Origin: a virus | Direction: 5' to 3' (one strand) | Virus record (IMG/VR): IMGVR_UViG_3300020045_002218 | Coordinates: 1 to 64,000 of that record | DNA length: 64,000 bases | In this document: one piece after another, positions 2,062-35,106 of the stretch | Position numbering within the stretch: the stretch's first letter is position 1 | How the letters are laid out: every line of letters begins with the position of its first letter | Made by a program: the position numbers and the translations under genes | Notes under the pieces: generated by a model | Databases searched by the model: none | What the model saw: only the letters and a program-made list of their open reading frames with translations | What the model was told of the DNA's origin: nothing

Positions 2062-4383
2062 ATGTCAGTAGCATTCTCAGAGGTAGCTAATTTATTTGAC
2101 CCTATAATGGGGAGTATCAACGATAAATTAGTTATTGAATTTGAAAAGAATAGACTCAAAGGAGCTGATTATGCTGCTGTATATGCTCAAGCTATTGAGT
2201 CATCTTTACAACAAGTAGTTCAGTTAATATTAGGTACAGACCAGAGAGAACTCTTAGCAGCACAAGTAGAAGAAGTAGGAGCAAAGATAGCACTATCAAA
2301 CCAAGAATTAATTAACCTTGGTTTAGAAGCTCTTAACATACCAAAACAAGGTTTGATATTAGACTCTCAATTAGAAGATTCTCAAGCCAAGATAGCCTTA
2401 ACTATTGCTCAAAAGGATCAAGTTATTGAAGAAACTAAAAATGTACCTAAAGAAGGGTTAATTTTAGATGCTGAGTTGTTAATCAAAGAAGAACAGATTA
2501 TTGCTTCTCAAGCTGATACTCAATATAAAATAGAACAAGTAGAACTTACTAAAGCAGAAATAAAACTTAAAGAGTCTCAAGTATTACTATCTGAAAAAGA
2601 GTTAGAATTTAAGACTGTAGAGTTTAACCAAAAATTACCTTTAGAAATTCAAAAACTTTCTAATGAAACTACTTTAGTTGGTGTACAAACAGATGAAGTA
2701 TCTGCACAAATAACTAAGATAAGCGAAGATGTTAAGTTAATACCAAAACAAGGACAATTGTTAGATCAACAAGTTCTTAATGCAGTACAGGATGTACTTA
2801 AATCACAGGCTGAAGTAGTCAATCTTGGTAAACAAGGAGAGTTAATTACATCTCAAATTAGTGAATCAGATTCAAAAGTATTATTAACTTCTGCACAAGC
2901 AGAACTTGCAGATAAAAATGTTATTAAAGCAGATTCAGAAATTGCTTTAGCAGTACAGGAAGTATTAGTTAAACAACAAGAAGTATTATCTTCAATTGCA
3001 GAGGTAGCTACACTTAATGCTAAATTACCTAACATAGTTAAAGAAGGTACATTGCTTGATTCTCAAGTTATTAAGCTTGAATCAGACAATACTTTAACTA
3101 CAAAACAAATAGAAGTTGCTACACAAGATATATTGTTGAAACAACAAAATGTTCTTAATGCAGCTCAAGAGGTATTAAAATCACAAGCAGAGGTTATAAA
3201 TTTAGCTAAACAAGGTGAGTTAATTACTGCTCAAGTATCTGAAACAGATTCTAAAATTCTACTTACATCAGCTCAAGCCAGTAGAACTGATAAAGAAGTT
3301 ATTAAGATGGATTCTGAAATAGCTATAGCTCAACAAGAAGTATTGGTTAAACAACAAAATGTTCTAAGTTCTATAGCTGAAGTAGCTACCTTAAACGCTA
3401 AGTTACCTAATATTAGTAAGGAAGGAGACTTACTTGATGGTCAAGTATTAAAAATTACCTCGGATATTACTCTTACTGAAAAACAAATAGAGGAAGCAAC
3501 TCAAGATATTTTAGTTAAACAACAAAACGTATTAAATGCAATTCAAGAAGTTTTAAAATCTACTGCTGAAGTAGAAACATTAAATGCTAAATTGATTAAT
3601 ATACCTGTTGAAGGTGATTTACTTGAAGCTCAAATATACAAATTGTTAAAAGATGCTCTTAAAACAGATGCAGATATTATTAATATTTCTGCTGATACTA
3701 ATAAGACAAATGCTGAAACATTGATTGTTCCTAAAGAAGGTTTAATTCTTGATGCTAAACTTCCTAATGTATACAAAGAAGGTAAAGTATTAGATGGTCA
3801 ATATGATAAGTTAGTTGGGGATTACTTACTTGTAGTTCAAGAGAAACTTAATAGAATTGCTGAAGCACTTAACATTCCTAAAGAAGGTGCTAAGCTTGAT
3901 GCTGAGACTGCTAATGTTGTTGGTAAGACTTCTTTGATACCTAAAGAATCTGAATTAATGGATGCTAAGATTGTTAATTTATTAAGAGAGAATGCTAACT
4001 TAGAAGAGCAATTAAGGTTATTAACTATTCAAGGAGATAATTTAGTTAAAGAAGGTAACAACTTAGATAAACAAGTAGAGATTGCTACTGAAGAATTAGC
4101 TATTAAGAAAGAAGAAGTTAAAAAGATGCCAGCAGAAATATGTTTAATTAAAGCTCAAGCATGGAATCAAAGAGCTAGTGCTAAACATACAGATGCTTTA
4201 ATCGGACCAGAGAGAGCAAGATGGGCAGCAGAAGCTTTAGGACACATGGTTTCTGACCATGCTACTGCAATAAGCCATGACCCTTCCATAGGTTCTGCTT
4301 TCTCTGATGGATCATTACAAGCACATGCTACTAGAGTAGAGCAACTTGCACAACAAAAAAATAATACGGAAAATGGTTGTTAA
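2062..4383 (+). CDS. N4 gp54-like structural protein, expanded by coiled-coil repeats
   Basis: N-terminal EFEKNRLKGADYAAVY motif; repeated (I/V)PKEG.LLD units; synteny. Confidence 0.65.
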   Translation: MSVAFSEVANLFDPIMGSINDKLVIEFEKNRLKGADYAAVYAQAIESSLQQVVQLILGTDQRELLAAQVEEVGAKIALSNQELINLGLEALNIPKQGLILDSQLEDSQAKIALTIAQKDQVIEETKNVPKEGLILDAELLIKEEQIIASQADTQYKIEQVELTKAEIKLKESQVLLSEKELEFKTVEFNQKLPLEIQKLSNETTLVGVQTDEVSAQITKISEDVKLIPKQGQLLDQQVLNAVQDVLKSQAEVVNLGKQGELITSQISESDSKVLLTSAQAELADKNVIKADSEIALAVQEVLVKQQEVLSSIAEVATLNAKLPNIVKEGTLLDSQVIKLESDNTLTTKQIEVATQDILLKQQNVLNAAQEVLKSQAEVINLAKQGELITAQVSETDSKILLTSAQASRTDKEVIKMDSEIAIAQQEVLVKQQNVLSSIAEVATLNAKLPNISKEGDLLDGQVLKITSDITLTEKQIEEATQDILVKQQNVLNAIQEVLKSTAEVETLNAKLINIPVEGDLLEAQIYKLLKDALKTDADIINISADTNKTNAETLIVPKEGLILDAKLPNVYKEGKVLDGQYDKLVGDYLLVVQEKLNRIAEALNIPKEGAKLDAETANVVGKTSLIPKESELMDAKIVNLLRENANLEEQLRLLTIQGDNLVKEGNNLDKQVEIATEELAIKKEEVKKMPAEICLIKAQAWNQRASAKHTDALIGPERARWAAEALGHMVSDHATAISHDPSIGSAFSDGSLQAHATRVEQLAQQKNNTENGC
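2797..3560 (+). repeat. Intragenic tandem duplication, 378 nt (126 aa) period
   Basis: LKSQAEV.NL.KQGELIT.Q...IAEVATLNAKLPNI.KEG.LLD...KQQNVLNA.QEV occurs twice (from 2797 and 3175). Confidence 0.85.
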
Positions 4384-9075: not shown

Positions 9076-12000
9076 ATGTCTACTACGTTTAATAATAATA
9101 CAACTTTCAATAACAATTCTTTTGAAGATACAGCTACACCTTTAATACAACAAAAGAAATTAAGTTTATTAGATAGTGTATTTAATAAAAGAAATGAACT
9201 TGGTTTCAGTTCAGCTAATTTAAAGGATAGAGAAGTACAAGCATTAGATGCTGATACAGTAAGAATCAATCCTAGTGTAGCTGATAAGGCTTATGATCCT
9301 TTTGTTAAACCAGTAGATGTAAGACTTAAAAGTAATAACTTTGGTGAATCATTTAATGCTTTTGAAACTTCACATGGTAATGAGAATGACCCTGAAGTAG
9401 CTGCTAGATTACAGAAGCAAAGAGATGTTATTGATAATGAGTGGACTCATGGATGGTTTAATCCCGCTACAAACCAAGATGTGTATGATAGAGGTGTTGC
9501 TGGTAAACAATTATTAGCAGATAAGCTTAAACAAGTTAATGAAGGTAAAACTGGATTAGACTTTGCTTTAGGTGAAAGAGATAAGTTTGGTAGACCATTA
9601 GGTGATATGAAATTATCTAATGAGAATACTTCTGTTATTGATTCTATGAATACTCCTGAAATTAACTCAGCATATAACACACCTTATAATTTTGCTAAAG
9701 TAAATCAAGATAATAATATTATAGATCATGCTAAAGATGCTTTAGCTAGTTTTGGTACTGGTGCTACTGTACTTGCAGGTCAAGGACTTGTTGGTATGGC
9801 TGATTTAGCTCAATACGGAGTTAAGAAAGGTTTAACAGCTTTAGCTGATAAAGGTTCTGATTATGATAGAGCTATTAATGAAGCTCCGTCAATAACAGAT
9901 CAGTTACAAGAAGTTGGGTATGACCCATTAAGAACTAAAACTACATTAGATGAAGTTTTACATTCAAAAGAATGGATTAAGAAAGAAGCAGAAATGCAGA
10001 ATGTTATTTCTAAATCTGATGGTGAATGGGATGCAGCTAAAAATACTTTTGAATTCTTAGTTAATAATCCAGCACATTTATTAACTAGTGCTGTATCAGA
10101 ATCTTTACCACTAATGCTTGGAGGTATGGGTGTTACTCAAGCAGTAAGTAAAAACTTAGCTAAAAAGACATTGGAAAATGCTTTAAGAAATACTTCAAAA
10201 GATAGCTTAAAAATACTTGGTGCTGGTGCAGTAACCGAAGGATTACAATCTGCTGGTGCAATAGCTGATACTGCTGATTTACATGGTAGAACACAAGACC
10301 AATATGCTCCTAATGCACTATTAGCTGGTTTAGGTACTGGTGTTATTAATATGGGTATGAATACTGCTTTAGGTGATATAGCTACAAATATTGCTACTAG
10401 AGGTGCAGTAGGTAAAACAGGTATAGTTAAATCAATTCTATCTGAAGGTGCAGAAGAAGCTCAACAAACAGCTTTAGAAACCATAAATACTAATATTGCT
10501 GAAGGTGAAAAAGACATCTTTAAAGGTATTGGTTCAGAAACTGTATTAGGTACTGCTGCTGGTATGGCAACTGGTGGAGGTATGGCAATTCCTCATAGTG
10601 CTATAAATGCTCTACAAGCTCGTAAAACACCTGAAGACACACAAACACTTACTGAAGATGTAAACACCTCTACAAACGAAGATTTGCACCCTTCTGTTGG
10701 AGTATTTACAGATAAAGTAAACCAAATAAAGAATGAAGTGGATCCTGTAGTAAAACAACAAACAGTAGAAGAATCAATTAATGAACTCCCTACTGATGCT
10801 TCTCTTAAGGATAGAAAAGAAGTACAAAACCAAGTTAATACTATGGTTAGTAGTATTGATGAAACTTCTTTATCATCTGAATTTAAAGCTAAACAAACAG
10901 AATTTAATACCCAAATACAGGCTGAAGATGAGTTACAAGCATTAGATGTATCTACCATTAAACCAGAAGAACAAGATAAAGCAATAGAGAATATTTCAGC
11001 TAAAGTAAATACTCTAGTATCTAAACCAGATAAAGCTACAGTAGATTCTCTTGTAAAGGTAAGTGATACCTTTGCTACTAAGTATCAAGATTCAGATACT
11101 ATTAATGATCCCTTGGTTCAAACTGTACTTAAACAAGAGACATCTAAAATGTCTCCTTCAGAGACTGCTACAGCTCAAAAAGAAGCTAAGGCAAAGGTTG
11201 ATGAGGGTAAACAAGTTACACCCTCTAAAATAGAAGATTTAGTACTTTCTAAACCTAATATAGATGAATACAAAGTTAAGGTTGAAACTATTACAGATGA
11301 CAATAGACAGGAAATTATAAACCAAGGTATTAAAAATTATTCTCATGATGGTACTTTACCTGAAAAGATTCAAATGGCTACTGCTATTGGTAAAGCTAGA
11401 GATGGTTATAATTCACCTGAACATGACGCAATCTACAGACAAGTTAATGCAGAGATAACATTACAACACTGGGCAAAACAAGCTGCCTTTAAAAGTATGA
11501 TTAGTGATCCAGCTAATACAATAGAAGATATTGAAGCTGATCTTGTTAGTAATTCTACAGATTCTACATCAACTAATACTGGTTCAATATTTAATGATAT
11601 TGGTAGAACTAAAGATAAAGATACATTAAATATTCTTAAAGATATTTCTATAGCTAAACAAAAAGAATATGCAGATAGTGATTCAGTTAATGATCCTTAT
11701 GTATTAGCTACTACTGGTATTGAAACTAAGAACTTAGAACCTAGAGCATCTGAAACATTCTCTGCTGTTATGAGAGGAGAATATAAAGGAGATCTTAATG
11801 AACCTTTACTTAGATTATCTGCTAACTTAACTAACCCAAAAGATAAAGATACTGCTATATCAGCATTAACAAAAACTATCTCTAAAGTATATTCAGATAA
11901 AGTAGATATTACTGACACTACTGAAAGAACAGTTAAACAAGCATTAAATACTATTAATGGTTTAGTTACTAATAAAGGTACTATTACTATTGAACCAAGT

Positions 12001-15000
12001 GATTCATTAGAAGAGATACATAGAAAGATATTACCTATATTTGGTTCAACAATGATTGAAGGTGATACAAGTAAGTTATCTCCAGAATTTGTTAAATCTA
12101 ATAATGAATTAGTTACTGCTTTAAAAGAGCATGAAACTAAATACTTAAAAGGTAAATCTACAGAAGAAGTAGCTAATGATAAATTGGTAGGTGGTGGTAA
12201 GTTACCTAGTTATAAAGATCATGTTGGTTTAATTCACTTAGCTTTAGCTAATAATGCTAGTAAAGAGTTCATTCAAGCCAAGGTAAATAAATTATCTAAA
12301 TGGGTATCTTATGATGCTAATAGGGCTAAGTTATTCACTAAACTATCTACGACTACTAATGAAGAAGAGAAAGCTAATTTAGTAGAACAGCTTAAAGGTA
12401 AAAATCCCTTTACAAGTAATGAAGGATTATCATTTACAACTGGTTCAGTAAAATTAGCTGAACAGTTAAATGATGAATCTAAAATAATGGTAGATGCTTT
12501 AACCAATATGCAGAATGAAGTTAATACTCATTTTGGTATTACAACACAAGTAACTCCTACACAATCAGGTAAAGGTTTAGTTAAAAAAGTTCCTGGTGTT
12601 ACTACTAAAGCACAACAAGTAAAAACTACAAGACTTAAAAATATTTCAAATCATGTAAATACTATATTAAAAGATACTGCTCTTACAGAAGAGTTTATGA
12701 AGTCTTTTATTGATACAGGTGAAATTAAGCTTAAAGAACTTAATGCTGATATTGCTGATTTTCAAAAACAACAAATAACTAATGAACCTGAGTTTGCTCC
12801 GTTTGATGATACTAATATTCCAGAAAATATAGATGATAATTTAGAGTCTACGGTAGATGTAGAATCCTCTACAAGCAATGAAACAACTAAACCTGAAGAA
12901 GTTATTACCTCAGAAGATAAAACTCCTGTAATCGAAGATTTGGAGGATTCTGATGAGTCTTTAGAAGATAAATTAAATCGTATATGGCAAGAAAGATATG
13001 ATGCAGAAATGCAACAACAAGAAGAATTCTTTCAACCTACAGCTAAGACAGAACATTACGTTGTAAACTCAGAATCCTTTCCTAGATATGATGATGAGAA
13101 CCTAGTTAAAATAAATACCTTGGTTCAAAATCTAGTTAAGTTCGATGACACGTTAGATATGCCTAAAGCTATTGAATACATTCAAAAAGCTTTAAAAGGT
13201 AAAACAGATAAGTTACCTAAAAATATTCAAGATAGGTTAAATAGACCTATGGTTCAAGAAAAGCTTAAAGAGATTAAACCATATAGTTTAATTTTAGAAG
13301 ATTCTACAAATAAAACTAAACATAAGTTTACTCAAAAGTTTCATTCTTTTAGGAATGTATTTATAAATGGGATACAACAATTTAAAGTTGTTGATGGCGA
13401 AAGGAAACCTATAAAGAAAGCAAACTTACCTATTCATAATATGATTCTTAGAATGTTTAAACCAGAATCGATAGAAAACAAATCTCTTTATAACAAGTAT
13501 CCTAATCTATTTAAAAATCTTTTTAATATTCCTGAATACTTTAGAGATGTTGTTAAAACTAAAGAAGGTGAAAGAGCATTTATACAACTAAGGAATGAAG
13601 AAGCTAGATTTCAAAAAGCATTTCAATATACATTCAAATTTGAAGTAAATGATAAAGTAGATCCTTTATATATGTTTACTAATGATAAGCATGAAGTAGA
13701 ACCAAATATTGTATCAGCTATATTTGTAGCTAGTATGGATTGGATGTTATCTAAAGGAAGAGATACATTATATAACTTTCCTAAAGATGCTAAAGCAATT
13801 GTAGGTATGAAAGAAGAAGATACACTTGAGCCTTTAATAGTAAATGAATTAGCAACTAAAGGTAGTGTAAGAACTGTTATTGCTAATGCTATAGGAAATA
13901 CAGCATTTGCTAATTTAAAATTTAAACCAAGTGATACATATTCAGAGGCTGAAATAGCTAAATTAAAATTAGCTTTAGGTTTACATGCTGTAAACACAAT
14001 GGTCAATTTAGGATATGTAGAAGTATCTGGAGCAATAGAAACAACTACATTTAATTCATTTAAGTTTAATAATTTACTTAATTGGAAATATGTTAATCCA
14101 AAATTACCTGCTGATACTCAGAAAGAGTCTGTTGTATTTATTCGTATTGCTAATGAAATGAAAGATGGTGTTCATGAAATTAGGGAGGATATTAAGAAGA
14201 AATTAGATACTATTAAAGCGGGTGTTAAAGAAGTAAATAAATTATTTGATATTGAATACTCAAAAGAATTACCTAGATTATTTGAACCAACTGAAGATGA
14301 TATTTATACTTATCTTGGGGGTAATAAAGAAACAGGTGAAAAACCTAGAGCATTACACTCAAACCAAGTAATTGCAAATAGAAGAGTTAAAAATCTTACT
14401 AAGTATATTCAGCAAGCACATACAATGAATATACCTGTTAATGCTTTAGCTGTAGCTTTAGGTAAAGATGCTATTAAAGATATTGTTATGGGTAAAGACT
14501 GGAAGTTACCTCAACAACAACATACAGCTAAATCTTTTGAAGGTAAATTACGTTCATTTGAAAATAATTACGAAGACTTTGAAACACTAAATAAACTTGG
14601 TTCAAGTGATCCAGAACACAGTATTTACCATTTATCTACTTACTGGAAACAAGGTAGAGTTGGAGGTTCATCAGTAGGACATCCACAAAACAATAAAGAA
14701 GTAAGAAATTTATCTGCACCTAAATCTCAAATAGTAAAGGTTAAAGCTAAAGATGATGTTCTTAGAGTTGAATTCAAATTAGCTGTATTAGAAGCATTTG
14801 GTAAAGCAGCTAAGTCATTTTTAAACATTCAAGAAATTGAAGAAGCATATATAGAATTAGAAACCAAGTATGCTGATGCTATACAAGCAATCAAAACTTG
14901 GGAAGAAACTAAAGAATTAGATAAACAAGTAATTATTGCTGCTGCTCAAGAAGGGGGAGAGAAAACGCATTCATTAGCAGGATTAATGGCATTAGCACAA

Positions 15001-18000
15001 TACTCACCAGATAAAGAGTTTACTTCGTATATTGGAAGAGAAGTCGATGGTATTACTAACGGAGTATTAATTGGTTTAGTTCTTCTTTCAGGTGTTAATA
15101 ATTTTGATGTTTATAAAGATGTGTTATCAGCAGCAGGATTATTTGAAGATCCTAACATGACTTATGCACAATGGGAAAGAGAAGTTAATGCAGAGGGAAT
15201 TACTAATTTAGATAACTATAAAAAAATTACGAGAACATTTTTTGATGAGTTAGAGAATATTTCTGAGAATGCTTTACACGATAGATTAGGCAGTAATTCT
15301 AAAGCTAAGTTTCAAGCTATTAAAGATTTAACTGGAGAATTAGTTACACAACCTTCTATAGATGAAATAGGTAATGAAGTTAAAAGTGTTATTACTAAAG
15401 CAGGAAGAAACTTCTCTAAACCATTATTATTACTTACTATGTTTGGTAAGTCTGCTACTAAACTAGCAAATTCTAAAGGTGATGATGTAGTAACAGCTTT
15501 TTATGAACAATTAGCTAAATTATATAATGAAGCTAAAGCTTCAGAAGAAAAGGTAGATAGGGAAGCTGTAAGAAGTTTAATTAATAAAATTGAAACTATC
15601 TTAGGTAAACCCCTTTTAGGTAATATTGTTGAAGATGGTAAACTTAAAAAAGTTAGTGAAAGTTCAAGAGAGAATGTATTAGTACCTCTTACTGCAAGCA
15701 ATATGCTTAATTTTAAGCTTACAAACCAAGATAATAAAACTATTGTAGAGACAGTAAGTAGATTATATAAACCTGAAATTACAGCAGCTATTGATGCTTT
15801 CTTTGGTGCTACTATTGCTAATAGAAAGATACTTAATGATGCTTATTATATTGTGGGTGAAGTATTTAAACTTGGTTTGAAAAAGGAATTAACAGCATTT
15901 TCAAAGAAGTATAAAAGAGAACCTTCAGAAGTAGAATTTGATAATATCTTAGAGAAGTTAAAAGCTATTCAACCTTTAGCTCCTACTTCAGATGCTACAG
16001 GACTAGAACATCATGTACAGTTATGGGATTCTTCTAAGAGTTCTATTCAAAGAGATAACTATGGTACTCAAGTAAATTTCAATCATCCTGAAGGAGTAAT
16101 GATTGATTATACGATTTTAGATAGAGAAGGTAACTTAGGTTACTATAACATAAAACTACCTAAATCAGCATCAGGACATGCTGTAGGATTAGTATTAGAT
16201 TCTCTTGGTGTAGGTGTAGCTATTATGCACATACATAACAAAGATTCAGAGGTAATAGTAGATACAATGTCCTCAGAGTTTACTGGTTTAGGTGTTCATG
16301 ATGCTTGGATATTTAATATAGCTCAAGCTGTATCTGGATCTGCTTTTATGAACCAATCTCTTAATAAGCATCTTAGAAATACTGACGTATTTAAAGGAGC
16401 AGTTGATTCAATAAACAGAGTAATGAAGTATCTTGAATCTAATGAAGATATTTTAGAAACAATAAATATTGAACTTGTTAATACAACAAATCCTGATAAG
16501 GGTATGTTTAAAATGCAAAGATTCTATGACTTAACAGATAAAGTATTTACTCCACAATTTGAAAATTTAGATCAATATGTAGAATATCTTAAGGCTGTAA
16601 GTGCTGAATTAAAAACTCAAAGAGATGAACAAATATTTAAGAATATTCCTCCAACAGGTGTTAAACAGTATGGTGGTACTGATGGAAGTCAAGATGTTAA
16701 AGATATTGCTGACTCAGAAGCTCAAATAGAAGCAAATAGAGCTGTTAGAGAAGCAGCTAAGGCTAAAGCAGCTAAAGAAATACAAGATGCTAAGGATGAA
16801 GCAGAGCGTAAAGCTAAGGAAGATGAAGAAGCATTTAACGATGAAACATCTAAAGTATTTATATACAAAGATGTTTCTATTGATACAGCATTTGCTTTAG
16901 GTAAAGAACAAAAAATAGTCTTACGAGAATTAATTGATTTTCTTAACTCAGATTTTATATCTAGTGATCCTAAAACCTTTATACATACTGTAAGTGGAGC
17001 AGCAGGAACAGGTAAAACAAGCATTATCGGGTATTTAGAACAATATATGCGTAAAGCTAATAAGTATGAACCCCCTTTCAAATATGCAGCTCCTACACAT
17101 GCAGCTACAGCACAATTAGCCGTTGCTATAGCTAATACTGGTGGTACAGAATATCCACTAACAGTTAAATCTAGTTGGTATTTAAACACTTCTGGAAAAA
17201 CTCCTGTATGGTTATTTACAAAGAAAATGGGAGATAATAATAGTGTGCTTGTTGTTGATGAATCGTCTATGGTTGAAAATGATGAAATAGATGGTTTAAT
17301 TAAAGCAATGCAAAAACCTATGCAAATGAATGTTAAGAAAGTCATTTTAATAGGTGATGAAAAACAACTTCCAGAAGTTAAAGAAAATTCAAGAGAGAAG
17401 CAAACTCAAGTATCTAAAGCTTTTAGAGAGTTTAATGTATCAAATTTAACTAAAGTATACAGACAAAAGGAAAATTTACTTTTATCTATTTTAGGTAAAA
17501 TGAGAGCTTCTGTAACAGATAATTTATATAAACCCAAACCAAATGCTTCTAAAGAAAATATAGAGTTTTTACCTATAAAAAGAGATTTCTTTATAGCATT
17601 TGTTGAAGCATATAAAAGAAATCCTACAGAGACTATAGCAGTAACATTTACAAATACTGGAGTAGCTCAGTTAAATAAATTTATTAGAAAAGAAACATTA
17701 AAAGATAAATCAGCTTTTACTCAAGAAGGTGAAACAGTTGTAGGATATGCAGGATACGGAAATAAAACAATTGAAGGACAGCATATCGCTAATTCATTAG
17801 CATATAAACTTGATAGTATTAAACATATTTCTGGAATACAGGGCGTAGTCTTGGATGCTACATCACCTAAATTAAATAAAATAAATGAATCAGAAATGTC
17901 TGTAGATGCTGATGCTTCAGCAATTTACTTACAACTATCCGATACAGATTCTCTTAATATCGAGGGGGAAAATAAAAATTATGTTGCTAATAATACATAC

Positions 18001-21000
18001 ATAAGCGATATTTTTAAAAAAATATATGATTTAAGTGATTCTTTTTATAAAACGCCGTATACAAGTAGTGGATTTACGCAGTATAAAAATTCTTTAAAAA
18101 AATTAACACAAGTTTTAGCAGGCATAGCTTTAGGGGATGATTATATTTATAACCCTAAAACAGAAAGAATGGAATTACTCAAGAATAATTCTGTAGTTGC
18201 TTCACCTAGAGTAAAAAAAGATATTACTTTTCCTAAAGGTATTGATTACGGATATGCAGTAACTATTCATAAATCCCAAGGAATAACAATGGAAAATGTA
18301 TTCTTTGATGCTTCATTTTTAGGTGATAAAGACGTAGCTATTATGAATAAAGATAGGCAAGTAACAACACTTAAACAAAGCCTTGCTTATGTAGCTATGA
18401 GTAGAGCATCTAAAAAATTAACTGTGTTTGCTGGTGAAACTCCTTTTACAGAGTATGTTGAAGGTACTTCCAAACAAGAAACTAAAACTAAACCAAGTGA
18501 AACCAATAAAGAAGAAGTACCTCATTTAGTCATTACTCCAATACAAGCAGTAGATAATAAAGCTACCATTAAAGGTAAATTAGCTAATAAGTTTATTGGA
18601 TTTGCTGAAGGTATTAATAATAGTTCAACAGGAGAGTATGCTAAACAAGCTGGAGATAAAGCTAATACAGGTGTATATACTTCTGATGATATTATCTTTG
18701 TTTCTGTTCCTGGTAAACGAGGTAATGCTGAAGTAAGGAAAGCACAACAAACCAAGACTATTAAAGAAGCTATTAAAGCATTAGAAGCAGGAGCTACACT
18801 ACTTACTGACAACGAAAAGTATGTTACATCAAGTGAATATAATGAAGGTGAGTTACGCCTTAGAAATAACTTATTACATAAAGGATATAAGTATTCTGAG
18901 ATAACTTCTGAAGGTCAAGTAATTGGTAAATGGAATAAAGAAGAAGTAAAACCTACAGCAACTCAAACCAATGAAAATAATAAACTTCTTGGTTCAACAC
19001 CTAATGCTAAAGATTTACTTACAGAAAAAGCAGACTTAATTAAAGATGTTACTGCTGAGAATATAGTATCTGAGTTTGATGCTATGCCTAAAGGTGAAGA
19101 TGAAACACATAATACATTCTTAAGAAACTTTGTATCTCAAGTAATAGCTCCAGTAGTAGAACAAACTGAATTACTTTTGTTTAGTAAAGCTACATATAAC
19201 TATGGACAGTATTCTGCTGAGTTAAAGAAAGTAGCTATTAACTTAGGTCAAGCAATGTCTAAGGATTTAGATAAGTTTCAGATGTCTGCACAAGAAGTAT
19301 TTGCTCATGAATTTGTGCATGTAGTTCAATGGGCTGCTTATGGACTATATGATAACAAGCATATTAGAAATATAGTTGATACACTGTTCTATAAACTAGA
19401 GCATGAATTTAATAAATACAAAGCAAGACATCCAGAAGATAAATCTTTAGACAAGTGGGATGGTTATGTATTTAATAATAAAGACTTTATTGATGTAACT
19501 GTTCATAATACAACTACTGGTAAACCAATGGTTGTTAAATATAATAGAGGTATTCAAGAATTCTTAGCATTTGGTTCAACTAATAAAGAATTTAGAGAAT
19601 TACTTACAAAGCTTAAACCAAGACAATTAAAAGTAACTGAGGTAAGTGCATCTACAGTAAGTGATGAAATAAGAGAAGCTACTTGGATTGAAGTAATATC
19701 TAATGTTCTTAAGAAAGTATTAGATTCATTTATTAGATTAGCTAAAGGTAAAAATTCTTTAGATCCATTAATTATTTTTGATAAGAATGTAAGATTTATT
19801 TTAGCTGCTAATGGTAAAACAGGTTACTTAAATACGACAGTTCCTATAGTAGATAGAGGAGATACTTTTATATCTGAAAAAGCTAAGGATGTAGGGTTAG
19901 GTGTACTTAAGTTTGTAGCTAAAGGTAGAGGATCTAAAATTCAGATTATTGATTCACTTGGTAAGTATGCTGATACTCTTCCATCTATTGGAGGATTTGA
20001 AACCAATAAAGTAATAAGAGAAACTCTTAAACTCATTAAACATGAACCAACTAGAAATATGTTATTGGATACTGTTAATGACATTAAAGGAACTACGGAA
20101 GCTAATAAACCTTTAGAGAATGCAATTCTTAATCAAGGTACTATTGAAGGTGAACGTAATACAGCTACAGCTAAAGATGTACAAGAGTATCAAAAGAAAG
20201 TAGGTGTACTTAGTGATTTACAAGATACAGCATTTAAAAATGTTGTATTGTCAGGTGAATTATTCTCTGTAAGAGATAACTATCCAACTAATTTTATTAA
20301 GTTATTAGAGGATAAATCTGAATTAAACCTAGAGATTAAGACTTTAGAATCACAAATACCTAAGTTAGTTAGTGATACTAACAATCTAGCTAGTATGATG
20401 GTGTTAGGTAAATATACAGAAACTGGTTTGGGTAAACATAATGCTGCTTTAGTAGCTAAACAAGGAAGGAATATTCCTCAAGATAAGTATCAAAAAGAAT
20501 TAGATTTAGTGACTAAATTAAGTAGATTGTATGCTATTGGTTTACAAGATGTGAACCAAGTAAATGAAGTAGTTAAGTTACTTAAAGATAAACCACAAGC
20601 AATGAATGAAGTAATGAATGTACATAGAGAGAATGTAAGAAAAGCTCATGAAGAAGGACATGCTCTTACTATTCATGATGGTGAGATACCTACATCATAT
20701 AACCCATTTAGGTCTATTCATTTAGGTACTAAAGAAGATGAGAAATTCTTAGTAGAGAATTGGGGAGCAACTATTATTGGTAACTTAGAAAGAGATCCTA
20801 ATGATTCTTTAACTACTCCAGGTGTGTTGTATTTAATTACTGAAAAGACTCAACAGGATTATGATTCTAAAGCTATGGCTTTTGTAAGTAGAAACTCAGA
20901 ATCAAGTAACTTTCATTCTGGTTTTGTTATGACAGATAGGTTTAAAGCAGCAGAGAATAGAGAGAAAGCTAAACTAAAGGATGCTGGTATTAAATCAACT

Positions 21001-22485
21001 AACAACATCAAACAAAAGAATAACTCTAATGTTTCAAGGGTAGCTATATTTAATCAACAAGGTAAAGTTATTAGATATGAATATGTCTTGGATAAAGCTA
21101 CTAAGGACAAGTATCTTAAACCAACGGTTAATGCTTTCAAAGATTTAGCTACTCAGAAGAATGCTATAACTTATACAAATGAAGCTATTAAACTTAATAA
21201 ACAGTTGGTAGATAAGTTATATAACTACTGGAAAGGGTTAGGTCATAAAACAAGACACGATATGCTTTGGGTTGGTTCAGAAGGTAAATACAAAGACTTA
21301 TGGAATATGATTCCTACTGAAACTAAAGCTTATTTTGAAACTAAATTTGGTACTGCAAAGGGCTTTTATATGGCAGAAGAGGAATTAAGAACTGTGTTTG
21401 GTTATAGAAAACAAACTATAACTAATTGGATTCAACCTGTATTAGAGGATGATTTGAAAAGACATATTGGTAATCACATTTACTATATGGTTAAGAGATT
21501 AGGATTTAACCTAGCTACTATTACAGCAATGGAATCTATGTGGATTGAAGGTATCTCTTTTGCTAAAGATACTATTGTAGTGAAGAGTGGTGTTGTATCA
21601 GCAGCTAATGAGTCAAGTAACTTTATGACTGCTAAATTAGAAGGTATGCCTATACCATTCTATTATGAAAACAAGATTAGAGCTATGAAAGCAGAACAAC
21701 AATTTAGAAGAGATTCTGATGCTTTATTATCACATTTAAGTAATGCTTATGGTAATCCAGAATATATAACTGAAGCTATTGATTATGAGATGAATAAGCT
21801 TAAATCAGCTATATCTAATAACCCAATGGCATTCTTACATGATGAAGGGTTAGCTTCTACTATAGCAGAAGAGAATGCTCACAAAGATAAACATGAAACC
21901 AAGCTATATTCTAAGACTGAAAGAGCTAGAAACTTATTTGATAAATTACCTAAAGTAGTTAAGGATACGCTTAAAGTAGCAACAATATCAGAAGGTACTA
22001 AGATATATACCTTAATGAATGAGATAGCTCAAATGGGAGATATTACATCAAGGTTTGCTCTTATTGCTTGGGAAGCAGAGAAAGCTAAACGTAGTGGTAC
22101 TAAATTTGATTATGAATCAGCTATAGATAAAGCTAAATTCTTATTTATTCAATATCATTCAGTTACTAATGATAAAGTTCAATGGGGAAATGATATTGGT
22201 TTAATTATGTTTAGTAAATTTGGTACTAAAGCTATAGGTGTATTAGCTCACATGTTTGGTAATCATGCAGGTAGGTTATTAGCATTAGGAATACTTGAAG
22301 ATGTATTAAGTGCTTCTGATTGGATATGGAATACAAGTCTTAATAAATTTGCTATACCTACTTCATCTTTATATGCAGCAATTGATGCTAGTCCAATAGC
22401 AAATGCTTTAATTACTCCTCCAGCATATATGCCTAAAGAGTTATTTTCTAAGCTAGGTATCTTACCTGTAGTATCTGGATTATAG
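9076..22485 (+). CDS. Virion-encapsidated RNA polymerase (N4 gp50-like) with SNase-like, SF1B helicase and zincin domains
   Basis: 4469 aa, no Cys seen; motif A REVDGITNG (~15046), motif B RNFSKPLLLLTMFG (15406-15447), motif C GVHDAW (~16300); helicase motifs 16996-18420; AHEFVH at ~19303. Confidence 0.95.
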   Translation: MSTTFNNNTTFNNNSFEDTATPLIQQKKLSLLDSVFNKRNELGFSSANLKDREVQALDADTVRINPSVADKAYDPFVKPVDVRLKSNNFGESFNAFETSHGNENDPEVAARLQKQRDVIDNEWTHGWFNPATNQDVYDRGVAGKQLLADKLKQVNEGKTGLDFALGERDKFGRPLGDMKLSNENTSVIDSMNTPEINSAYNTPYNFAKVNQDNNIIDHAKDALASFGTGATVLAGQGLVGMADLAQYGVKKGLTALADKGSDYDRAINEAPSITDQLQEVGYDPLRTKTTLDEVLHSKEWIKKEAEMQNVISKSDGEWDAAKNTFEFLVNNPAHLLTSAVSESLPLMLGGMGVTQAVSKNLAKKTLENALRNTSKDSLKILGAGAVTEGLQSAGAIADTADLHGRTQDQYAPNALLAGLGTGVINMGMNTALGDIATNIATRGAVGKTGIVKSILSEGAEEAQQTALETINTNIAEGEKDIFKGIGSETVLGTAAGMATGGGMAIPHSAINALQARKTPEDTQTLTEDVNTSTNEDLHPSVGVFTDKVNQIKNEVDPVVKQQTVEESINELPTDASLKDRKEVQNQVNTMVSSIDETSLSSEFKAKQTEFNTQIQAEDELQALDVSTIKPEEQDKAIENISAKVNTLVSKPDKATVDSLVKVSDTFATKYQDSDTINDPLVQTVLKQETSKMSPSETATAQKEAKAKVDEGKQVTPSKIEDLVLSKPNIDEYKVKVETITDDNRQEIINQGIKNYSHDGTLPEKIQMATAIGKARDGYNSPEHDAIYRQVNAEITLQHWAKQAAFKSMISDPANTIEDIEADLVSNSTDSTSTNTGSIFNDIGRTKDKDTLNILKDISIAKQKEYADSDSVNDPYVLATTGIETKNLEPRASETFSAVMRGEYKGDLNEPLLRLSANLTNPKDKDTAISALTKTISKVYSDKVDITDTTERTVKQALNTINGLVTNKGTITIEPSDSLEEIHRKILPIFGSTMIEGDTSKLSPEFVKSNNELVTALKEHETKYLKGKSTEEVANDKLVGGGKLPSYKDHVGLIHLALANNASKEFIQAKVNKLSKWVSYDANRAKLFTKLSTTTNEEEKANLVEQLKGKNPFTSNEGLSFTTGSVKLAEQLNDESKIMVDALTNMQNEVNTHFGITTQVTPTQSGKGLVKKVPGVTTKAQQVKTTRLKNISNHVNTILKDTALTEEFMKSFIDTGEIKLKELNADIADFQKQQITNEPEFAPFDDTNIPENIDDNLESTVDVESSTSNETTKPEEVITSEDKTPVIEDLEDSDESLEDKLNRIWQERYDAEMQQQEEFFQPTAKTEHYVVNSESFPRYDDENLVKINTLVQNLVKFDDTLDMPKAIEYIQKALKGKTDKLPKNIQDRLNRPMVQEKLKEIKPYSLILEDSTNKTKHKFTQKFHSFRNVFINGIQQFKVVDGERKPIKKANLPIHNMILRMFKPESIENKSLYNKYPNLFKNLFNIPEYFRDVVKTKEGERAFIQLRNEEARFQKAFQYTFKFEVNDKVDPLYMFTNDKHEVEPNIVSAIFVASMDWMLSKGRDTLYNFPKDAKAIVGMKEEDTLEPLIVNELATKGSVRTVIANAIGNTAFANLKFKPSDTYSEAEIAKLKLALGLHAVNTMVNLGYVEVSGAIETTTFNSFKFNNLLNWKYVNPKLPADTQKESVVFIRIANEMKDGVHEIREDIKKKLDTIKAGVKEVNKLFDIEYSKELPRLFEPTEDDIYTYLGGNKETGEKPRALHSNQVIANRRVKNLTKYIQQAHTMNIPVNALAVALGKDAIKDIVMGKDWKLPQQQHTAKSFEGKLRSFENNYEDFETLNKLGSSDPEHSIYHLSTYWKQGRVGGSSVGHPQNNKEVRNLSAPKSQIVKVKAKDDVLRVEFKLAVLEAFGKAAKSFLNIQEIEEAYIELETKYADAIQAIKTWEETKELDKQVIIAAAQEGGEKTHSLAGLMALAQYSPDKEFTSYIGREVDGITNGVLIGLVLLSGVNNFDVYKDVLSAAGLFEDPNMTYAQWEREVNAEGITNLDNYKKITRTFFDELENISENALHDRLGSNSKAKFQAIKDLTGELVTQPSIDEIGNEVKSVITKAGRNFSKPLLLLTMFGKSATKLANSKGDDVVTAFYEQLAKLYNEAKASEEKVDREAVRSLINKIETILGKPLLGNIVEDGKLKKVSESSRENVLVPLTASNMLNFKLTNQDNKTIVETVSRLYKPEITAAIDAFFGATIANRKILNDAYYIVGEVFKLGLKKELTAFSKKYKREPSEVEFDNILEKLKAIQPLAPTSDATGLEHHVQLWDSSKSSIQRDNYGTQVNFNHPEGVMIDYTILDREGNLGYYNIKLPKSASGHAVGLVLDSLGVGVAIMHIHNKDSEVIVDTMSSEFTGLGVHDAWIFNIAQAVSGSAFMNQSLNKHLRNTDVFKGAVDSINRVMKYLESNEDILETINIELVNTTNPDKGMFKMQRFYDLTDKVFTPQFENLDQYVEYLKAVSAELKTQRDEQIFKNIPPTGVKQYGGTDGSQDVKDIADSEAQIEANRAVREAAKAKAAKEIQDAKDEAERKAKEDEEAFNDETSKVFIYKDVSIDTAFALGKEQKIVLRELIDFLNSDFISSDPKTFIHTVSGAAGTGKTSIIGYLEQYMRKANKYEPPFKYAAPTHAATAQLAVAIANTGGTEYPLTVKSSWYLNTSGKTPVWLFTKKMGDNNSVLVVDESSMVENDEIDGLIKAMQKPMQMNVKKVILIGDEKQLPEVKENSREKQTQVSKAFREFNVSNLTKVYRQKENLLLSILGKMRASVTDNLYKPKPNASKENIEFLPIKRDFFIAFVEAYKRNPTETIAVTFTNTGVAQLNKFIRKETLKDKSAFTQEGETVVGYAGYGNKTIEGQHIANSLAYKLDSIKHISGIQGVVLDATSPKLNKINESEMSVDADASAIYLQLSDTDSLNIEGENKNYVANNTYISDIFKKIYDLSDSFYKTPYTSSGFTQYKNSLKKLTQVLAGIALGDDYIYNPKTERMELLKNNSVVASPRVKKDITFPKGIDYGYAVTIHKSQGITMENVFFDASFLGDKDVAIMNKDRQVTTLKQSLAYVAMSRASKKLTVFAGETPFTEYVEGTSKQETKTKPSETNKEEVPHLVITPIQAVDNKATIKGKLANKFIGFAEGINNSSTGEYAKQAGDKANTGVYTSDDIIFVSVPGKRGNAEVRKAQQTKTIKEAIKALEAGATLLTDNEKYVTSSEYNEGELRLRNNLLHKGYKYSEITSEGQVIGKWNKEEVKPTATQTNENNKLLGSTPNAKDLLTEKADLIKDVTAENIVSEFDAMPKGEDETHNTFLRNFVSQVIAPVVEQTELLLFSKATYNYGQYSAELKKVAINLGQAMSKDLDKFQMSAQEVFAHEFVHVVQWAAYGLYDNKHIRNIVDTLFYKLEHEFNKYKARHPEDKSLDKWDGYVFNNKDFIDVTVHNTTTGKPMVVKYNRGIQEFLAFGSTNKEFRELLTKLKPRQLKVTEVSASTVSDEIREATWIEVISNVLKKVLDSFIRLAKGKNSLDPLIIFDKNVRFILAANGKTGYLNTTVPIVDRGDTFISEKAKDVGLGVLKFVAKGRGSKIQIIDSLGKYADTLPSIGGFETNKVIRETLKLIKHEPTRNMLLDTVNDIKGTTEANKPLENAILNQGTIEGERNTATAKDVQEYQKKVGVLSDLQDTAFKNVVLSGELFSVRDNYPTNFIKLLEDKSELNLEIKTLESQIPKLVSDTNNLASMMVLGKYTETGLGKHNAALVAKQGRNIPQDKYQKELDLVTKLSRLYAIGLQDVNQVNEVVKLLKDKPQAMNEVMNVHRENVRKAHEEGHALTIHDGEIPTSYNPFRSIHLGTKEDEKFLVENWGATIIGNLERDPNDSLTTPGVLYLITEKTQQDYDSKAMAFVSRNSESSNFHSGFVMTDRFKAAENREKAKLKDAGIKSTNNIKQKNNSNVSRVAIFNQQGKVIRYEYVLDKATKDKYLKPTVNAFKDLATQKNAITYTNEAIKLNKQLVDKLYNYWKGLGHKTRHDMLWVGSEGKYKDLWNMIPTETKAYFETKFGTAKGFYMAEEELRTVFGYRKQTITNWIQPVLEDDLKRHIGNHIYYMVKRLGFNLATITAMESMWIEGISFAKDTIVVKSGVVSAANESSNFMTAKLEGMPIPFYYENKIRAMKAEQQFRRDSDALLSHLSNAYGNPEYITEAIDYEMNKLKSAISNNPMAFLHDEGLASTIAEENAHKDKHETKLYSKTERARNLFDKLPKVVKDTLKVATISEGTKIYTLMNEIAQMGDITSRFALIAWEAEKAKRSGTKFDYESAIDKAKFLFIQYHSVTNDKVQWGNDIGLIMFSKFGTKAIGVLAHMFGNHAGRLLALGILEDVLSASDWIWNTSLNKFAIPTSSLYAAIDASPIANALITPPAYMPKELFSKLGILPVVSGL

Positions 22486-25360: not shown

Positions 25361-27508
25361 CTATTTATCTCTCTGTGCAATACGTTTAAATACAGTTTTC
25401 ATTACAGAAGTTAGTATTTCTACTTCTTCTAATTTATCTCTGAGTTTATTATTAAACTCCAATACCTTGGATTGAATAACATCTTCACTTAAACCAGAAT
25501 CTACTAACATTAAAGCATATTTAATTAACTGGTTTGATCTATTACCATCTCCTGTTTTTGACAAGAACCAGCGTTCAATATTAGTTAAAGCTTGTGTATC
25601 TAAAATAACTTTCTTCTGTTCCTCTGCTTTAGCTGTCTTTGGAATGAATCCAAGTGCGTCTAACAGAATACCTTCATTATAGTGATATTCTCCTTTATGG
25701 CTTAACCACTTCCTACTTCTTTGACCTGTCTTATCATCGATAACCTTGAATGGAAGCCAAGCAAATATGTTCTGCATAAACTCAGTAAAGTCTTCTGCAC
25801 TTAGTTTAAGTTCATGGCTTATAGGAAACACTATTCTAAAGCGATTCTCCTTGTCTGTATGACGTTTAGTTGTATATATGAGGTAAGTGTATTCCTTAAG
25901 CAATAACTGAGCTGTAGCAATAGAAATACCACCATCTACATCTATTACAATCATATTGAATCCAGGAATAGCATTCTTTTCATTTCTATAGTTATCTATC
26001 ATATGATGGTTAATCCAATGATACCCATCCATTTGAGTAAGAATATGTAAGTCTTTCCATGAAGTATTCTTAACTACAGGATTATAACCCTCAGCTAACT
26101 GGGTAGAGCAAGCTAATATTAGTTTATCTAAATTGGTTTCTTTTAATGATTCTCCTTTAAGAAATTCAATACCATCTAGGTATAATTTTTTAATGATAAT
26201 GTTATTTTTATATCCATAAGCTGTAGCTAAAGTGATTAATTCTCTTTTTTGAGATTCACTACCTTTAAGTACATTGGCTTCAATTAAATCTACTTGTGTA
26301 ACTTCTGTATTAGTTGAAGCTAAATACTTAGCTAATCTTACATAAGGTCTTTCTCTAGTAAGAATCTTATCAAATGCTTTACCAGAATCTTCTACAAGCT
26401 TCATAGCTGCATGTAAATGGTACATAGTAACCCTAGCTGAATCATCAATAAAAGCATAAGCTCCAGCTAATTTAAGTACCTTAAAATATCTATGAGTTAT
26501 TTCTGCTTTACGGATAGTTTCATGTTCACCTAACGATGCTCCAATCTCTTCACAATCAAGTTTATACTGCAATAATTCAATACTTACTTCATCTGACATG
26601 TAAACAGTATTATTGAAGTTTGCTATATCAGCTAATGCACCTAATCTATCTGAGATAGTTTTAAGATTTTCTTCATGTGTTGTATCCTTAAGTAAGTGGA
26701 ATAATTCAATAGCTGTTAGTTTAGTAGCTTCTTCATTTACTTGACCATACCCAAATAAACATCTTCTTGCATAACCTGTAGCTAACATCTTATCAAATTC
26801 TTCTTCATTCTTAGAACCATCTAATAACTTAGTTGGTTCACCAAAGAGAAGCATATTAGCAGGTACTCTACCAATAATTTCTTTACTTCTTACATTGTCT
26901 TTTGTGTGTTTAATGAGCTTTTCACTTATTTCACCAGTATCATAAGATTCAAGATATGCAGCAAATAATTCAGCATTAGCTGAAAGATTAGAAGCAATCT
27001 CATCCATGATAAAGTTAAGACTACCAGCTTTAATCATTAAAAGTGATCTACGAAATTGTTTATAGGCTGGACTTGTACCACTATCAAATGAAAACAAATA
27101 AGGACATTCAATTTCCTTTTCTACCTTCTTCACTTCATCTTCAAGTTCTGTACTATTCTTAATACTTCGTTTAGTAGCAATATCCATAATTGCAATATCT
27201 GTTACATAAGGAAGAGTTTCTTCAATAAATTTATATCTGAATTGGTTTATTACTTTATCTTTAATAATAGCTAAAGACTTGTTCTTTGAGAAGCCACTGG
27301 GTGCGAGGTTAATAACATAAGAATTAATAGGAATAATTCCTCTATCTTGTGTAAATATATTTATTCTCATTGATGAAGCAATTTGACATAAAGAGAATGC
27401 TACTAGATTTCTAAAGAATGCTCTATCAGATACTTGAGTTAAGATGCATTGAGCATCAACAATAGTTTCTGCTAAAGCAAAATGAGGTTTATCTTGTAAA
27501 TCAATCAT
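25361..27508 (-). CDS. N4 gp43-like DNA primase (DUF3987-like N-terminus, AEP domain, PriCT-like C-terminus)
   Basis: APSGFSK; VIDVDGG; YTTKRH..RFRIVFP; GDGNRSNQLIKYA. Confidence 0.85.
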   Translation of the reverse strand: MIDLQDKPHFALAETIVDAQCILTQVSDRAFFRNLVAFSLCQIASSMRINIFTQDRGIIPINSYVINLAPSGFSKNKSLAIIKDKVINQFRYKFIEETLPYVTDIAIMDIATKRSIKNSTELEDEVKKVEKEIECPYLFSFDSGTSPAYKQFRRSLLMIKAGSLNFIMDEIASNLSANAELFAAYLESYDTGEISEKLIKHTKDNVRSKEIIGRVPANMLLFGEPTKLLDGSKNEEEFDKMLATGYARRCLFGYGQVNEEATKLTAIELFHLLKDTTHEENLKTISDRLGALADIANFNNTVYMSDEVSIELLQYKLDCEEIGASLGEHETIRKAEITHRYFKVLKLAGAYAFIDDSARVTMYHLHAAMKLVEDSGKAFDKILTRERPYVRLAKYLASTNTEVTQVDLIEANVLKGSESQKRELITLATAYGYKNNIIIKKLYLDGIEFLKGESLKETNLDKLILACSTQLAEGYNPVVKNTSWKDLHILTQMDGYHWINHHMIDNYRNEKNAIPGFNMIVIDVDGGISIATAQLLLKEYTYLIYTTKRHTDKENRFRIVFPISHELKLSAEDFTEFMQNIFAWLPFKVIDDKTGQRSRKWLSHKGEYHYNEGILLDALGFIPKTAKAEEQKKVILDTQALTNIERWFLSKTGDGNRSNQLIKYALMLVDSGLSEDVIQSKVLEFNNKLRDKLEEVEILTSVMKTVFKRIAQRDK

Positions 27509-33632: not shown

Positions 33633-33860
33633 TTATGCGTTTAAGTGATAAATTAATTGTATACAATTTCCTAAAATAGATAGTGAAAGTAACCAGAGTA
33701 TTAAAAATGATTTCATTCTTTCATCAGAAAGTTCTGAATGTAATGCTCTCCATTGAGATAACATACCATCAATTTCTTGTATAGCTTCTTTTCTTTTTAT
33801 CCATTCTCCTTTAGGATCTTCTAACATTCCTTTAAACCGTGTATGTCTAAATCGTTTCAT
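33633..33860 (-). CDS. Hypothetical membrane-anchored protein
   Basis: C-terminal hydrophobic helix. Confidence 0.5.
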   Translation of the reverse strand: MKRFRHTRFKGMLEDPKGEWIKRKEAIQEIDGMLSQWRALHSELSDERMKSFLILWLLSLSILGNCIQLIYHLNA

Positions 33861-34960
33861 TTATTTCCCTTACAAATATCAAGTATTTGTTTTATTGTTG
33901 AGTTGTTTGGTAATCCAATAGGTGTACTCCAGTTAGGATAGAATAAATCTACACTAGCTGAAATCTTTACAATATCGTGCTGTATTGCTTCTAATTCTTG
34001 CCAAGCCATACACTCAGTTAATTTCTTATTAAACCATTCTACACAGCCTATAGTGTCTTTAATCAGGTAATACTGAGCATCATGTATATGTGCTGATGGT
34101 TTAATATCTAAAGCATATTTAGATGCTAATACTCTTTGTTGCATCTCAATAGCAGATCTATTATTAAGTAATCCATACGATTGACCTAAAGCATTACCTG
34201 CTGTTCTTGATTCAGCTTTAGCTTCATTAGGTGTATTTTTATTACCTAAAATAGTTTGTTTAAGAATAGGCGTTCTAACTCTTAAACCAAATGCACAAGT
34301 AACATAACCATCTTTAGTTGCTTGTACTAATTGAGTATGAACCCATTCATCACTTACTTGATAAAGCTTATGATAATTGGTTTCAATTTGTTTAGCTCTT
34401 TCAACAGGTAAACCAAGATTCTTAACTAAGGTACTCCAAGTACCCTGATAAGTTAAGGCAAATGTTGGACACTTACTTTCTTGTCTCCAGTAAGGATATA
34501 CCTTAGCAATTGAATTAATAGACTCTACAGTATTTACTATATCAGGAAATTGTTCAGGAAAGTAAGCATAAGCTCTTAACGAATGTCCATCAAAACCGTC
34601 AACGTAACATTTTAGTTTGTTGGGATCTTTAGTTGTAAGAGCAGATACTTTGTCCTCTAAAGCGTCAAAATCAGCTCCAGCAAATATCCATCCTTTAGGA
34701 GCAATAAAACATTTCTTAATTAACTTTCCATATTGACTATTAGAAGGCAAATTTTGTAAATTCGGGGATGAACTACTTAATCTACCTGATACAGTTCCTC
34801 CAAGGTTAAAATTACCATGCAGGTAATAATAACCATCATCCTTTAATATTGACTTCTCTTTAAATGCAGATATGAATGTAGAGAGAATTTTCTCGACTGC
34901 TGATAATTCAATGAGTGCTTTTAGTAGTTTAGCAATTTCTATTGCTTCTTGTTTTGTCAT
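33857..34960 (-). CDS. DNA polymerase family A, C-terminal polymerase subunit (split gene)
   Basis: GGTVSGRLSSSSPNLQNLP; motif A GADFDALEDK; motif B RQESKCPTFALTYQG; motif C IHDAQY; ATG 34960 overlaps the upstream stop (ATGA). Confidence 0.92.
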   Translation of the reverse strand: MTKQEAIEIAKLLKALIELSAVEKILSTFISAFKEKSILKDDGYYYLHGNFNLGGTVSGRLSSSSPNLQNLPSNSQYGKLIKKCFIAPKGWIFAGADFDALEDKVSALTTKDPNKLKCYVDGFDGHSLRAYAYFPEQFPDIVNTVESINSIAKVYPYWRQESKCPTFALTYQGTWSTLVKNLGLPVERAKQIETNYHKLYQVSDEWVHTQLVQATKDGYVTCAFGLRVRTPILKQTILGNKNTPNEAKAESRTAGNALGQSYGLLNNRSAIEMQQRVLASKYALDIKPSAHIHDAQYYLIKDTIGCVEWFNKKLTECMAWQELEAIQHDIVKISASVDLFYPNWSTPIGLPNNSTIKQILDICKGNK

Positions 34961-35106
34961 AAACATCTTTGCCAAAGAATATTTAATCCACCTACTACAG
35001 CTCCTAAAAGATAATTTAACTCTTTAATAGGATTTACTTCCATTACTAAATAAGCTAAACCAAGATTTGCTATTAGTATTAATGTTTGTTTAAGTACACA
35101 ATTCAT
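34957..35106 (-). CDS. Small membrane protein between the polymerase halves
   Basis: MNCVLKQTLILIANLGLAYL...LLGAVVGGLNILW. Confidence 0.45.
   Translation of the reverse strand: MNCVLKQTLILIANLGLAYLVMEVNPIKELNYLLGAVVGGLNILWQRCL

Follow-up and report, generated by a model that had tools for sequence, protein, structure and literature searches.

Does a phenylalanine in motif B of a giant virion RNA polymerase (vRNAP), at the site where the T7 and N4 enzymes carry the ribose-discriminating tyrosine, change the kind of nucleic acid that the polymerase makes? The question is raised by a gene in positions 1 to 64,000 of IMG/VR virus record IMGVR_UViG_3300020045_002218, a stretch of 64,000 nucleotides which is referred to as the window, and the residue concerned is F2123 of the gene product. 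An earlier note on this DNA had regarded it as a natural equivalent of the T7 Y639F mutation and proposed an enzyme with relaxed sugar choice. We hold with considerable confidence to a plainer explanation, according to which F2123 is simply the family's ordinary Phe state, the enzyme makes ordinary early RNA, the ribose is probably still sensed through a conserved His and Gly, any laxity in vitro is a tolerated by-product, and the helicase carried in the same chain is independent of the substitution. The features on which the argument turns are the following.

9076..22485, + strand: giant vRNAP gene, 4469 amino acids (aa), no Cys (open reading frame (ORF), PHROG 2206).
13576..16875, + strand: modelled polymerase core, residues 1501-2600 (AlphaFold2, PDB matches).
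14653..14658, + strand: T/DxxGR motif, G1860-R1861; R1861 is invariant in two family alignments (A1, A2), and the motif aligns with N4 G423-R424 and T7 WRGR.
15046..15063, + strand: motif A, D1991-G-I-T-N-G1996, with the catalytic Asp and the Gly that corresponds to T7 G542; both D1991 and G1996 lie in invariant columns, and the motif aligns with N4 EADGVTNG and T7 D537-GSCS-G542.
15406..15447, + strand: motif B, R2111-x3-K2115-x7-F2123-G2124 (DNA, BLASTP, hidden Markov model (HMM)), at the end of model helix 608-622, the Phe being at model position 623.
15442..15444, + strand: TTT codon of F2123, the equivalent of N4 Y678 and T7 Y639 (BLASTP, HMM, profile-profile alignment).
16234..16236, + strand: H2387 in I-H-N-K-D-S, putative equivalent of T7 H784 (hhalign profile-profile alignment).
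16297..16302, + strand: motif C, H2408-D2409, with the catalytic Asp; D2409 is invariant and the motif aligns with T7 H811-D812.
16843..18450, + strand: inserted Dda/RecD-like superfamily 1 (SF1) helicase module, residues ~2590-3125 (Pfam AAA_30, E 3.6e-19; PHROG 325, E 3.2e-50).

The ORF, a very long single reading frame in the window according to the ORF list and its translation, encodes a genuine N4-type vRNAP of an N4-like phage, comparable to gp50 of the Schitoviridae. Residues 913-2626 match the PHROG 2206 profile, "virion RNA polymerase" (E 2.7e-207), and the T7-like motifs T/DxxGR, A, B, and C are present in order, with R1861, D1991, R2111, K2115, G2124, and D2409 in invariant or nearly invariant columns of A1 and A2. 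A BLASTP comparison with the N4 mini-vRNAP (from NC_008720) gave one alignment of 370 residues (E 5e-11, ~24% identity over the core) which spans T/DxxGR, motif A (EVDGITNG vs EADGVTNG), and motif B. The AlphaFold2 model of residues 1501-2600, obtained with the 23-sequence alignment A2, has a predicted local distance difference test score (pLDDT) of 77 and a predicted template modelling score (pTM) of 0.74. In the PDB comparison the first ten places are taken by N4 vRNAP entries (E ~1e-25, template modelling (TM) score 0.62-0.65), the best being the N4 mini-vRNAP entries 9pnq, 3c3l, and 2po4 (TM ~0.63), and the T7 and mitochondrial RNA polymerases (RNAPs) come next. Cysteine is found in 0 of the 4469 residues, helicase module included, and in none of N4 gp50 and the eight relatives checked, which would suit a protein that passes through the tail and the periplasm, as has been suggested for N4. 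The family profile, the catalytic motifs, the mini-vRNAP fold, and the giant Cys-free chain were thus all observed in one ORF.

The relationship is a distant one. By tblastn the protein is ~22-26% identical to the vRNAPs of 125 cultured Schitoviridae, while 322 family matches were obtained in the representative library. In a collection of 5.8 billion proteins the nearest relatives of the core are three sequences, only ~45% identical. A blastn search of 4 kb against phage records gave no match, nor did phmmer of the polymerase core against PDB sequences, and the Pfam scan of the ORF returned helicase domains only (AAA_30, AAA_19, PIF1, UvrD_C_2). A scan of IMG/VR with the single protein gave no close relative, but an alignment-based scan of IMG/VR did return loci. 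As a separate observation, the C-terminal domain of the vRNAP contains a zincin-like HExxH motif, HEFVH at residue 3411 (window 19306-19320), within a conserved family block with the consensus MSAQE..VHEL.HA in A1 and A2. These alignments suggest that the motif belongs to vRNAPs in general and is nothing special to this phage.

The reading of motif B itself is straightforward. Positions 15406-15447 are AGA AAC TTC TCT AAA CCA TTA TTA TTA CTT ACT ATG TTT GGT, in frame with the vRNAP ORF, and translate as R2111-NFS-K2115-PLLLLTM-F2123-G2124. The earlier note had placed the Phe at TTT, 15442-15444, residue 2123, with exact Rx3Kx7 spacing, and the DNA and its translation bear out coordinates, numbering, and codon alike. 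In the BLASTP alignment RNFSKPLLLLTMFG is paired with RGIAKNPLTITIY678G of N4, and in the vRNAP-core HMM the T7 sequence R627-SVT-K631-RSVMTLA-Y639-G falls on the same motif B columns. F2123 closes the model helix as Y639 closes the O-helix of T7 RNAP. BLASTP, the family profile, and profile-profile alignment therefore agree that F2123 is the positional counterpart of T7 Y639 and N4 Y678, as had been claimed, and the Tyr attributed to N4 vRNAP at this site can be read as Y678 in the N4 sequence.

How unusual is a Phe at this position? Two samples were examined, namely the best 150 of the 322 family matches (50% clusters), of which 148 cores were alignable, and 80 IMG/VR loci, of which 79 were scorable at the motif B aromatic. 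Both samples were ranked by likeness to the Phe-type query. Among the 148 representatives the residue is Tyr in 83 and Phe in 65, with no other residue at all, and a maximum-likelihood tree requires at least 14 switches between the two. Phe is found in 50 and Tyr in 29 of the 79 IMG/VR loci. The clade of four made up of the query and P0002-4 is entirely Phe-type, and so are its sister lineages P0010, P0011, P0013, and P0057. The alignment of motif B across vRNAPs, which the earlier note had called for, thus does return the Phe (65/148, 50/79), but as a common state of the family rather than a special one.

The same division is met among cultured phages, of which LUZ7, Pa2 (Litunavirus), and 98PfluR60PP are Phe-type, while N4, Vibrio BUCT194, and Alteromonas PT15-A5 are Tyr-type. 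The Tyr to Phe substitution was already recorded for N4-like phages in a supplementary legend of Ceyssens et al. 2010. For LUZ7, nine early primary transcripts, most of them from N4-like hairpin promoters, were mapped by ONT-cappable-seq (PMC9163698), and these early RNAs are ordinary 5′-triphosphate transcripts from hairpin promoters (PMC9163698). Since the Phe-type LUZ7 makes early primary transcripts, Phe-type vRNAPs act as RNA polymerases in vivo. On the sequence comparisons, F2123 is best described as the ordinary and already known Phe state of the N4-type vRNAP family.

If the Tyr hydroxyl is dispensable, the question becomes what else could sense the sugar. In T7 RNAP, discrimination of the ribose depends mainly on Y639, while H784 forms a hydrogen bond to the 2′-OH and G542 leaves space for it (reviewed in PMC11617373), and the Y639F/H784A double mutant is a more permissive enzyme (PMC4551944). 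The counterpart of G542, G1996, lies in an invariant column of A1 and A2 and is Gly in 80 of the 80 IMG/VR loci. The bulky steric-gate residue of family A DNA polymerases, a Glu, is absent from motif A, where the position is occupied by this Gly. A scan of 14 independent Tyr/Phe pairs for columns that track the switch singled out the column of H2387 together with a neighbouring Ala/Ser site, and these pairs showed no other column with consistent co-variation.

The pattern at the His site is a striking one. All 65 Phe-type sequences among the 148 representatives have His, as do all 48 scorable Phe-type IMG/VR loci, whereas the Tyr-type sequences have 51 His, 27 Gln, 3 Ile, 1 Leu, and 1 Gly (that of N4) in the first sample and 15 His, 13 Gln, and 1 Thr in the second. 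When pooled, a residue other than His occurs in 0 of 113 scorable Phe-type and 46 of 112 Tyr-type sequences. The tree shows 13 separate losses of the His, none of which combines Phe with non-His (rough p 5e-4 under independence). The rule is obeyed by LUZ7 (Phe + His), Vibrio BUCT194 (Tyr + Gln), and Alteromonas PT15-A5 (Tyr + Gln).

The correspondence of H2387 to T7 H784 was obtained by hhalign with a T7-family profile of nine members (probability 89%, E 2.5e-7), in which I-H-x-x-D-S of the vRNAP falls on V-H784-S-Q-D-G of T7 and N-V-H-D-A on I-H811-D812, with motifs B and C as anchors. With T7 alone as the target, the whole alignment A2 could be matched by hhalign in the T/DxxGR region only, and the C-terminal block of a sub-HMM was insignificant; it was the nine-member profile that resolved the alignment. 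In the model, H2387 lies in the helix immediately before the motif C hairpin, as does T7 H784. We read the combined pattern as suggesting that the aromatic ring is essential, that the hydroxyl may be dispensed with while the His is present, and that selection seems to act against the loss of both.

A mechanism can be proposed along these lines. F2123 occupies the C-terminus of the helix that corresponds to the O-helix, where insertion of the nucleotide and translocation would require an aromatic ring; across the family the position toggles freely between Tyr and Phe and admits no other residue. Without the Tyr hydroxyl, the ribose would most likely be sensed through H2387, by a hydrogen bond to the 2′-OH, and through G1996, which would leave space for that group. 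The large cellular excess of ribonucleoside over deoxyribonucleoside triphosphates (rNTPs and dNTPs, respectively) would also favour RNA. The enzyme would be injected with the DNA and make ordinary early RNA, so that its product in cells should be RNA. In vitro, dNTPs and 2′-fluoro nucleoside triphosphates (2′-F-NTPs) would probably be accepted better than by a Tyr-type enzyme, which would be a by-product and not a function. We infer both the assignment of the sugar check to His and Gly and the extent to which selectivity would be relaxed in vitro. By analogy with T7, some relaxation towards dNTPs and 2′-F-NTPs in vitro is to be expected by a narrow balance of the evidence.

A more tentative proposal, which we regard as possible and somewhat short of probable, is that the Tyr hydroxyl and the palm His form a mutually buffering pair for sensing the 2′-OH, of which either member may be lost and never both. 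A Phe-type vRNAP would then be a natural Y639F-like enzyme, relaxed in vitro while keeping a minimum of ribose discrimination. If this is true, the Phe-type vRNAPs would provide ready-made and diverse polymerases, templated by single-stranded DNA, for the synthesis of modified RNA.

Several points weigh against the explanation of F2123 as a family state with the ribose still sensed by His and Gly. The equation of H2387 with H784 is based on profile alignment and secondary-structure position and not on superposed coordinates. The ranking of both samples by likeness to the query means that the share of Phe may be overestimated. In the literature searched, no biochemistry of a natural Phe-type vRNAP was found, and the RNA-only output is for that reason deduced from LUZ7 transcriptomics and not from this enzyme. 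Moreover, T7 Y639F was reportedly found by Sousa and Padilla in 1995 to discriminate much less well even though it keeps H784 and G542. As the T7 mutant is lax despite these two residues, His and Gly may not restore full selectivity here.

That last point bears directly on the best-surviving alternative, according to which ribose discrimination is fully restored by the conserved His in combination with other changes, leaving no extra permissiveness even in vitro and no special value for modified RNA. The strict retention of the His in all Phe-type sequences, set beside its frequent loss from Tyr-type ones, speaks for such a compensation, and so does the fact that large clades have kept the Phe for a long time, which implies that it carries no fitness cost. 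It is, however, established knowledge that T7 Y639F is still permissive with both H784 and G542 in place, and the 14 pairs offered, beyond the His and the nearby Ala/Ser sites, no consistently co-varying column that could represent the other changes. We therefore consider full compensation unlikely, though deserving of serious attention, and prefer the explanation in which some laxity is tolerated.

The reading to which the earlier note leads, that the loss of the hydroxyl is exploited and the enzyme cooperates with its fused helicase in making mixed RNA/DNA or primer-like products, fares much worse. It has an attractive basis in that F2123 is the exact counterpart of T7 Y639 and N4 Y678, that dNTPs are substrates for the engineered Y-to-F mutants (established knowledge; PMC4551944), that the same chain includes a fused DNA helicase, and that Zhao et al. 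2009 (PMC2784036) mention N4 vRNAP in relation to both transcription and DNA replication. The steric-gate Gly is nevertheless invariant and the RNAP-type His kept, early transcription in the Phe-type LUZ7 is normal, and the phage has, besides a DNA polymerase A, its own dedicated N4-type primase, encoded at 25361-27508 (E 4.8e-282). Phe is common and has arisen repeatedly in vRNAPs that have no helicase, the nearest relatives included.

The helicase itself points in the same direction. Residues 2538-3119 match the PHROG 325 Dda-like helicase profile, and a complete SF1 helicase is inserted after the polymerase core, ahead of the C-terminal domain. It was found in only 2 of 155 family proteins, namely the query and P0012, a fragment of 2229 aa which starts after motif B, and it is lacking in the Phe-type relatives P0002-4, P0010, P0011, and P0013. 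Because the closest relatives without helicase share the Phe, the Phe predates the helicase fusion. When giant proteins were searched with the helicase module, 56 best matches were obtained, all but three of them 32-39% identical and none with a vRNAP core, so that the module looks like a shuffled accessory unit. These 56 proteins are 2500-6300 aa long, have very few Cys, and carry other domains such as AlkB-like, NADAR, and kinase domains. On such comparisons the helicase resembles a unit shuffled among injected polyvalent proteins rather than a partner that evolved for a Phe-type polymerase. Taken together, these results make an exploited loss very improbable, and the inference of primer-like products is given up in favour of ordinary early transcription with an independent helicase.

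Finally, TTT differs from TAT by one base and the window was assembled from uncultured material, but a sequencing or assembly error can be dismissed as having a negligible chance, because Phe stands in the same column in the three ~45% identical relatives, which read R[NT]FAKPILLLTMFG at motif B, and in many other lineages, and because related contigs from three other freshwater/sediment metagenome runs span the codon and have none of their listed differences between 15367 and 15463. This metagenome check is based on contigs of related strains and not on reads of the source, and the differences were counted among those listed.

The neighbouring genes, which encode the N4-type primase, a split DNA polymerase A, a ribonucleotide reductase, and a large terminase, complete the picture of the genome. 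The two DNA polymerase A halves lie in ORFs 33857-34975 and 36412-38007 (− strand), ~1.4 kb apart, and both match PHROG 17, at the complementary profile positions 518-922 and 931-1250. Elsewhere in the window, ORF 2062-4383, whose N-terminus corresponds to a virion structural protein (PHROG 2050), contains tandem internal repeats at 2758-3560 with a period of 378 nt and ~73% identity. A direct-repeat search of the window for families of early promoters gave nothing convincing.

For this window the substitution carries little weight, being typical of the lineage and telling nothing special on the helicase fusion. The comparative pattern, on the other hand, may interest polymerase enzymologists and those who make modified RNA. 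A site which admits only Tyr and Phe, switches frequently between them, and never has Phe without the His amounts to a natural experiment on the sugar check in single-subunit RNA polymerases. The use for modified RNA that the earlier note had envisaged would be reasonable, but it would not be specific to this enzyme, because dozens of natural Phe-type vRNAPs exist alongside the engineered N4 Y678F and T7 Y639F.

Among known systems, the closest parallel in state is provided by the Pseudomonas N4-like phages LUZ7, LIT1/PEV2, and Pa2 (Migulavirinae) and 98PfluR60PP, which have a natural Phe at the motif B Tyr site, the His being kept in LUZ7. Their vRNAPs are carried in the virion and are responsible for early transcription, which starts at hairpin promoters. 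They differ in belonging to a distant lineage, ~25% identical, with chains of ~3400 aa and no helicase, and in the wording of motif B, K-[QK]-PLTAMMFG against KPLLLLTMFG here. T7 Y639F has the same Phe, His, and Gly at the three sugar-sensing positions. It is, however, a laboratory mutant of an 883-aa promoter-specific enzyme with a measured relaxation of selectivity, whereas the present enzyme is natural and known from its sequence alone. The double loss represented by Y639F/H784A, i.e., Phe with non-His, has no example among the 113 scorable natural Phe-type vRNAPs.

Coliphage N4 gp50 (mini-vRNAP, residues 998-2103; PDB 2po4, 3c3l, 9pnq) shares the fold, the four motifs in order, and the giant Cys-free chain, and primase, DNA polymerase A, and terminase accompany the vRNAP gene in both genomes. 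It is unlike the present enzyme in having Tyr678 in place of the Phe and Gly in place of His2387, in a core identity of ~24%, and in its length of 3500 aa with no helicase module, compared with 4469 aa with helicase here. An engineered Y678F form of the N4 mini-vRNAP was reportedly described by Kazmierczak et al. in EMBO J in 2002. It concerns the same family, position, and residue change, but N4 has Gly at the His site, and the mutant thereby acquires the Phe and non-His state that nature appears to avoid. The behaviour of N4 Y678F may, by this comparison, overstate the relaxation to be expected here. N4, with Tyr and no His, thus represents the complementary state to this enzyme, with its Phe, His, and Gly.

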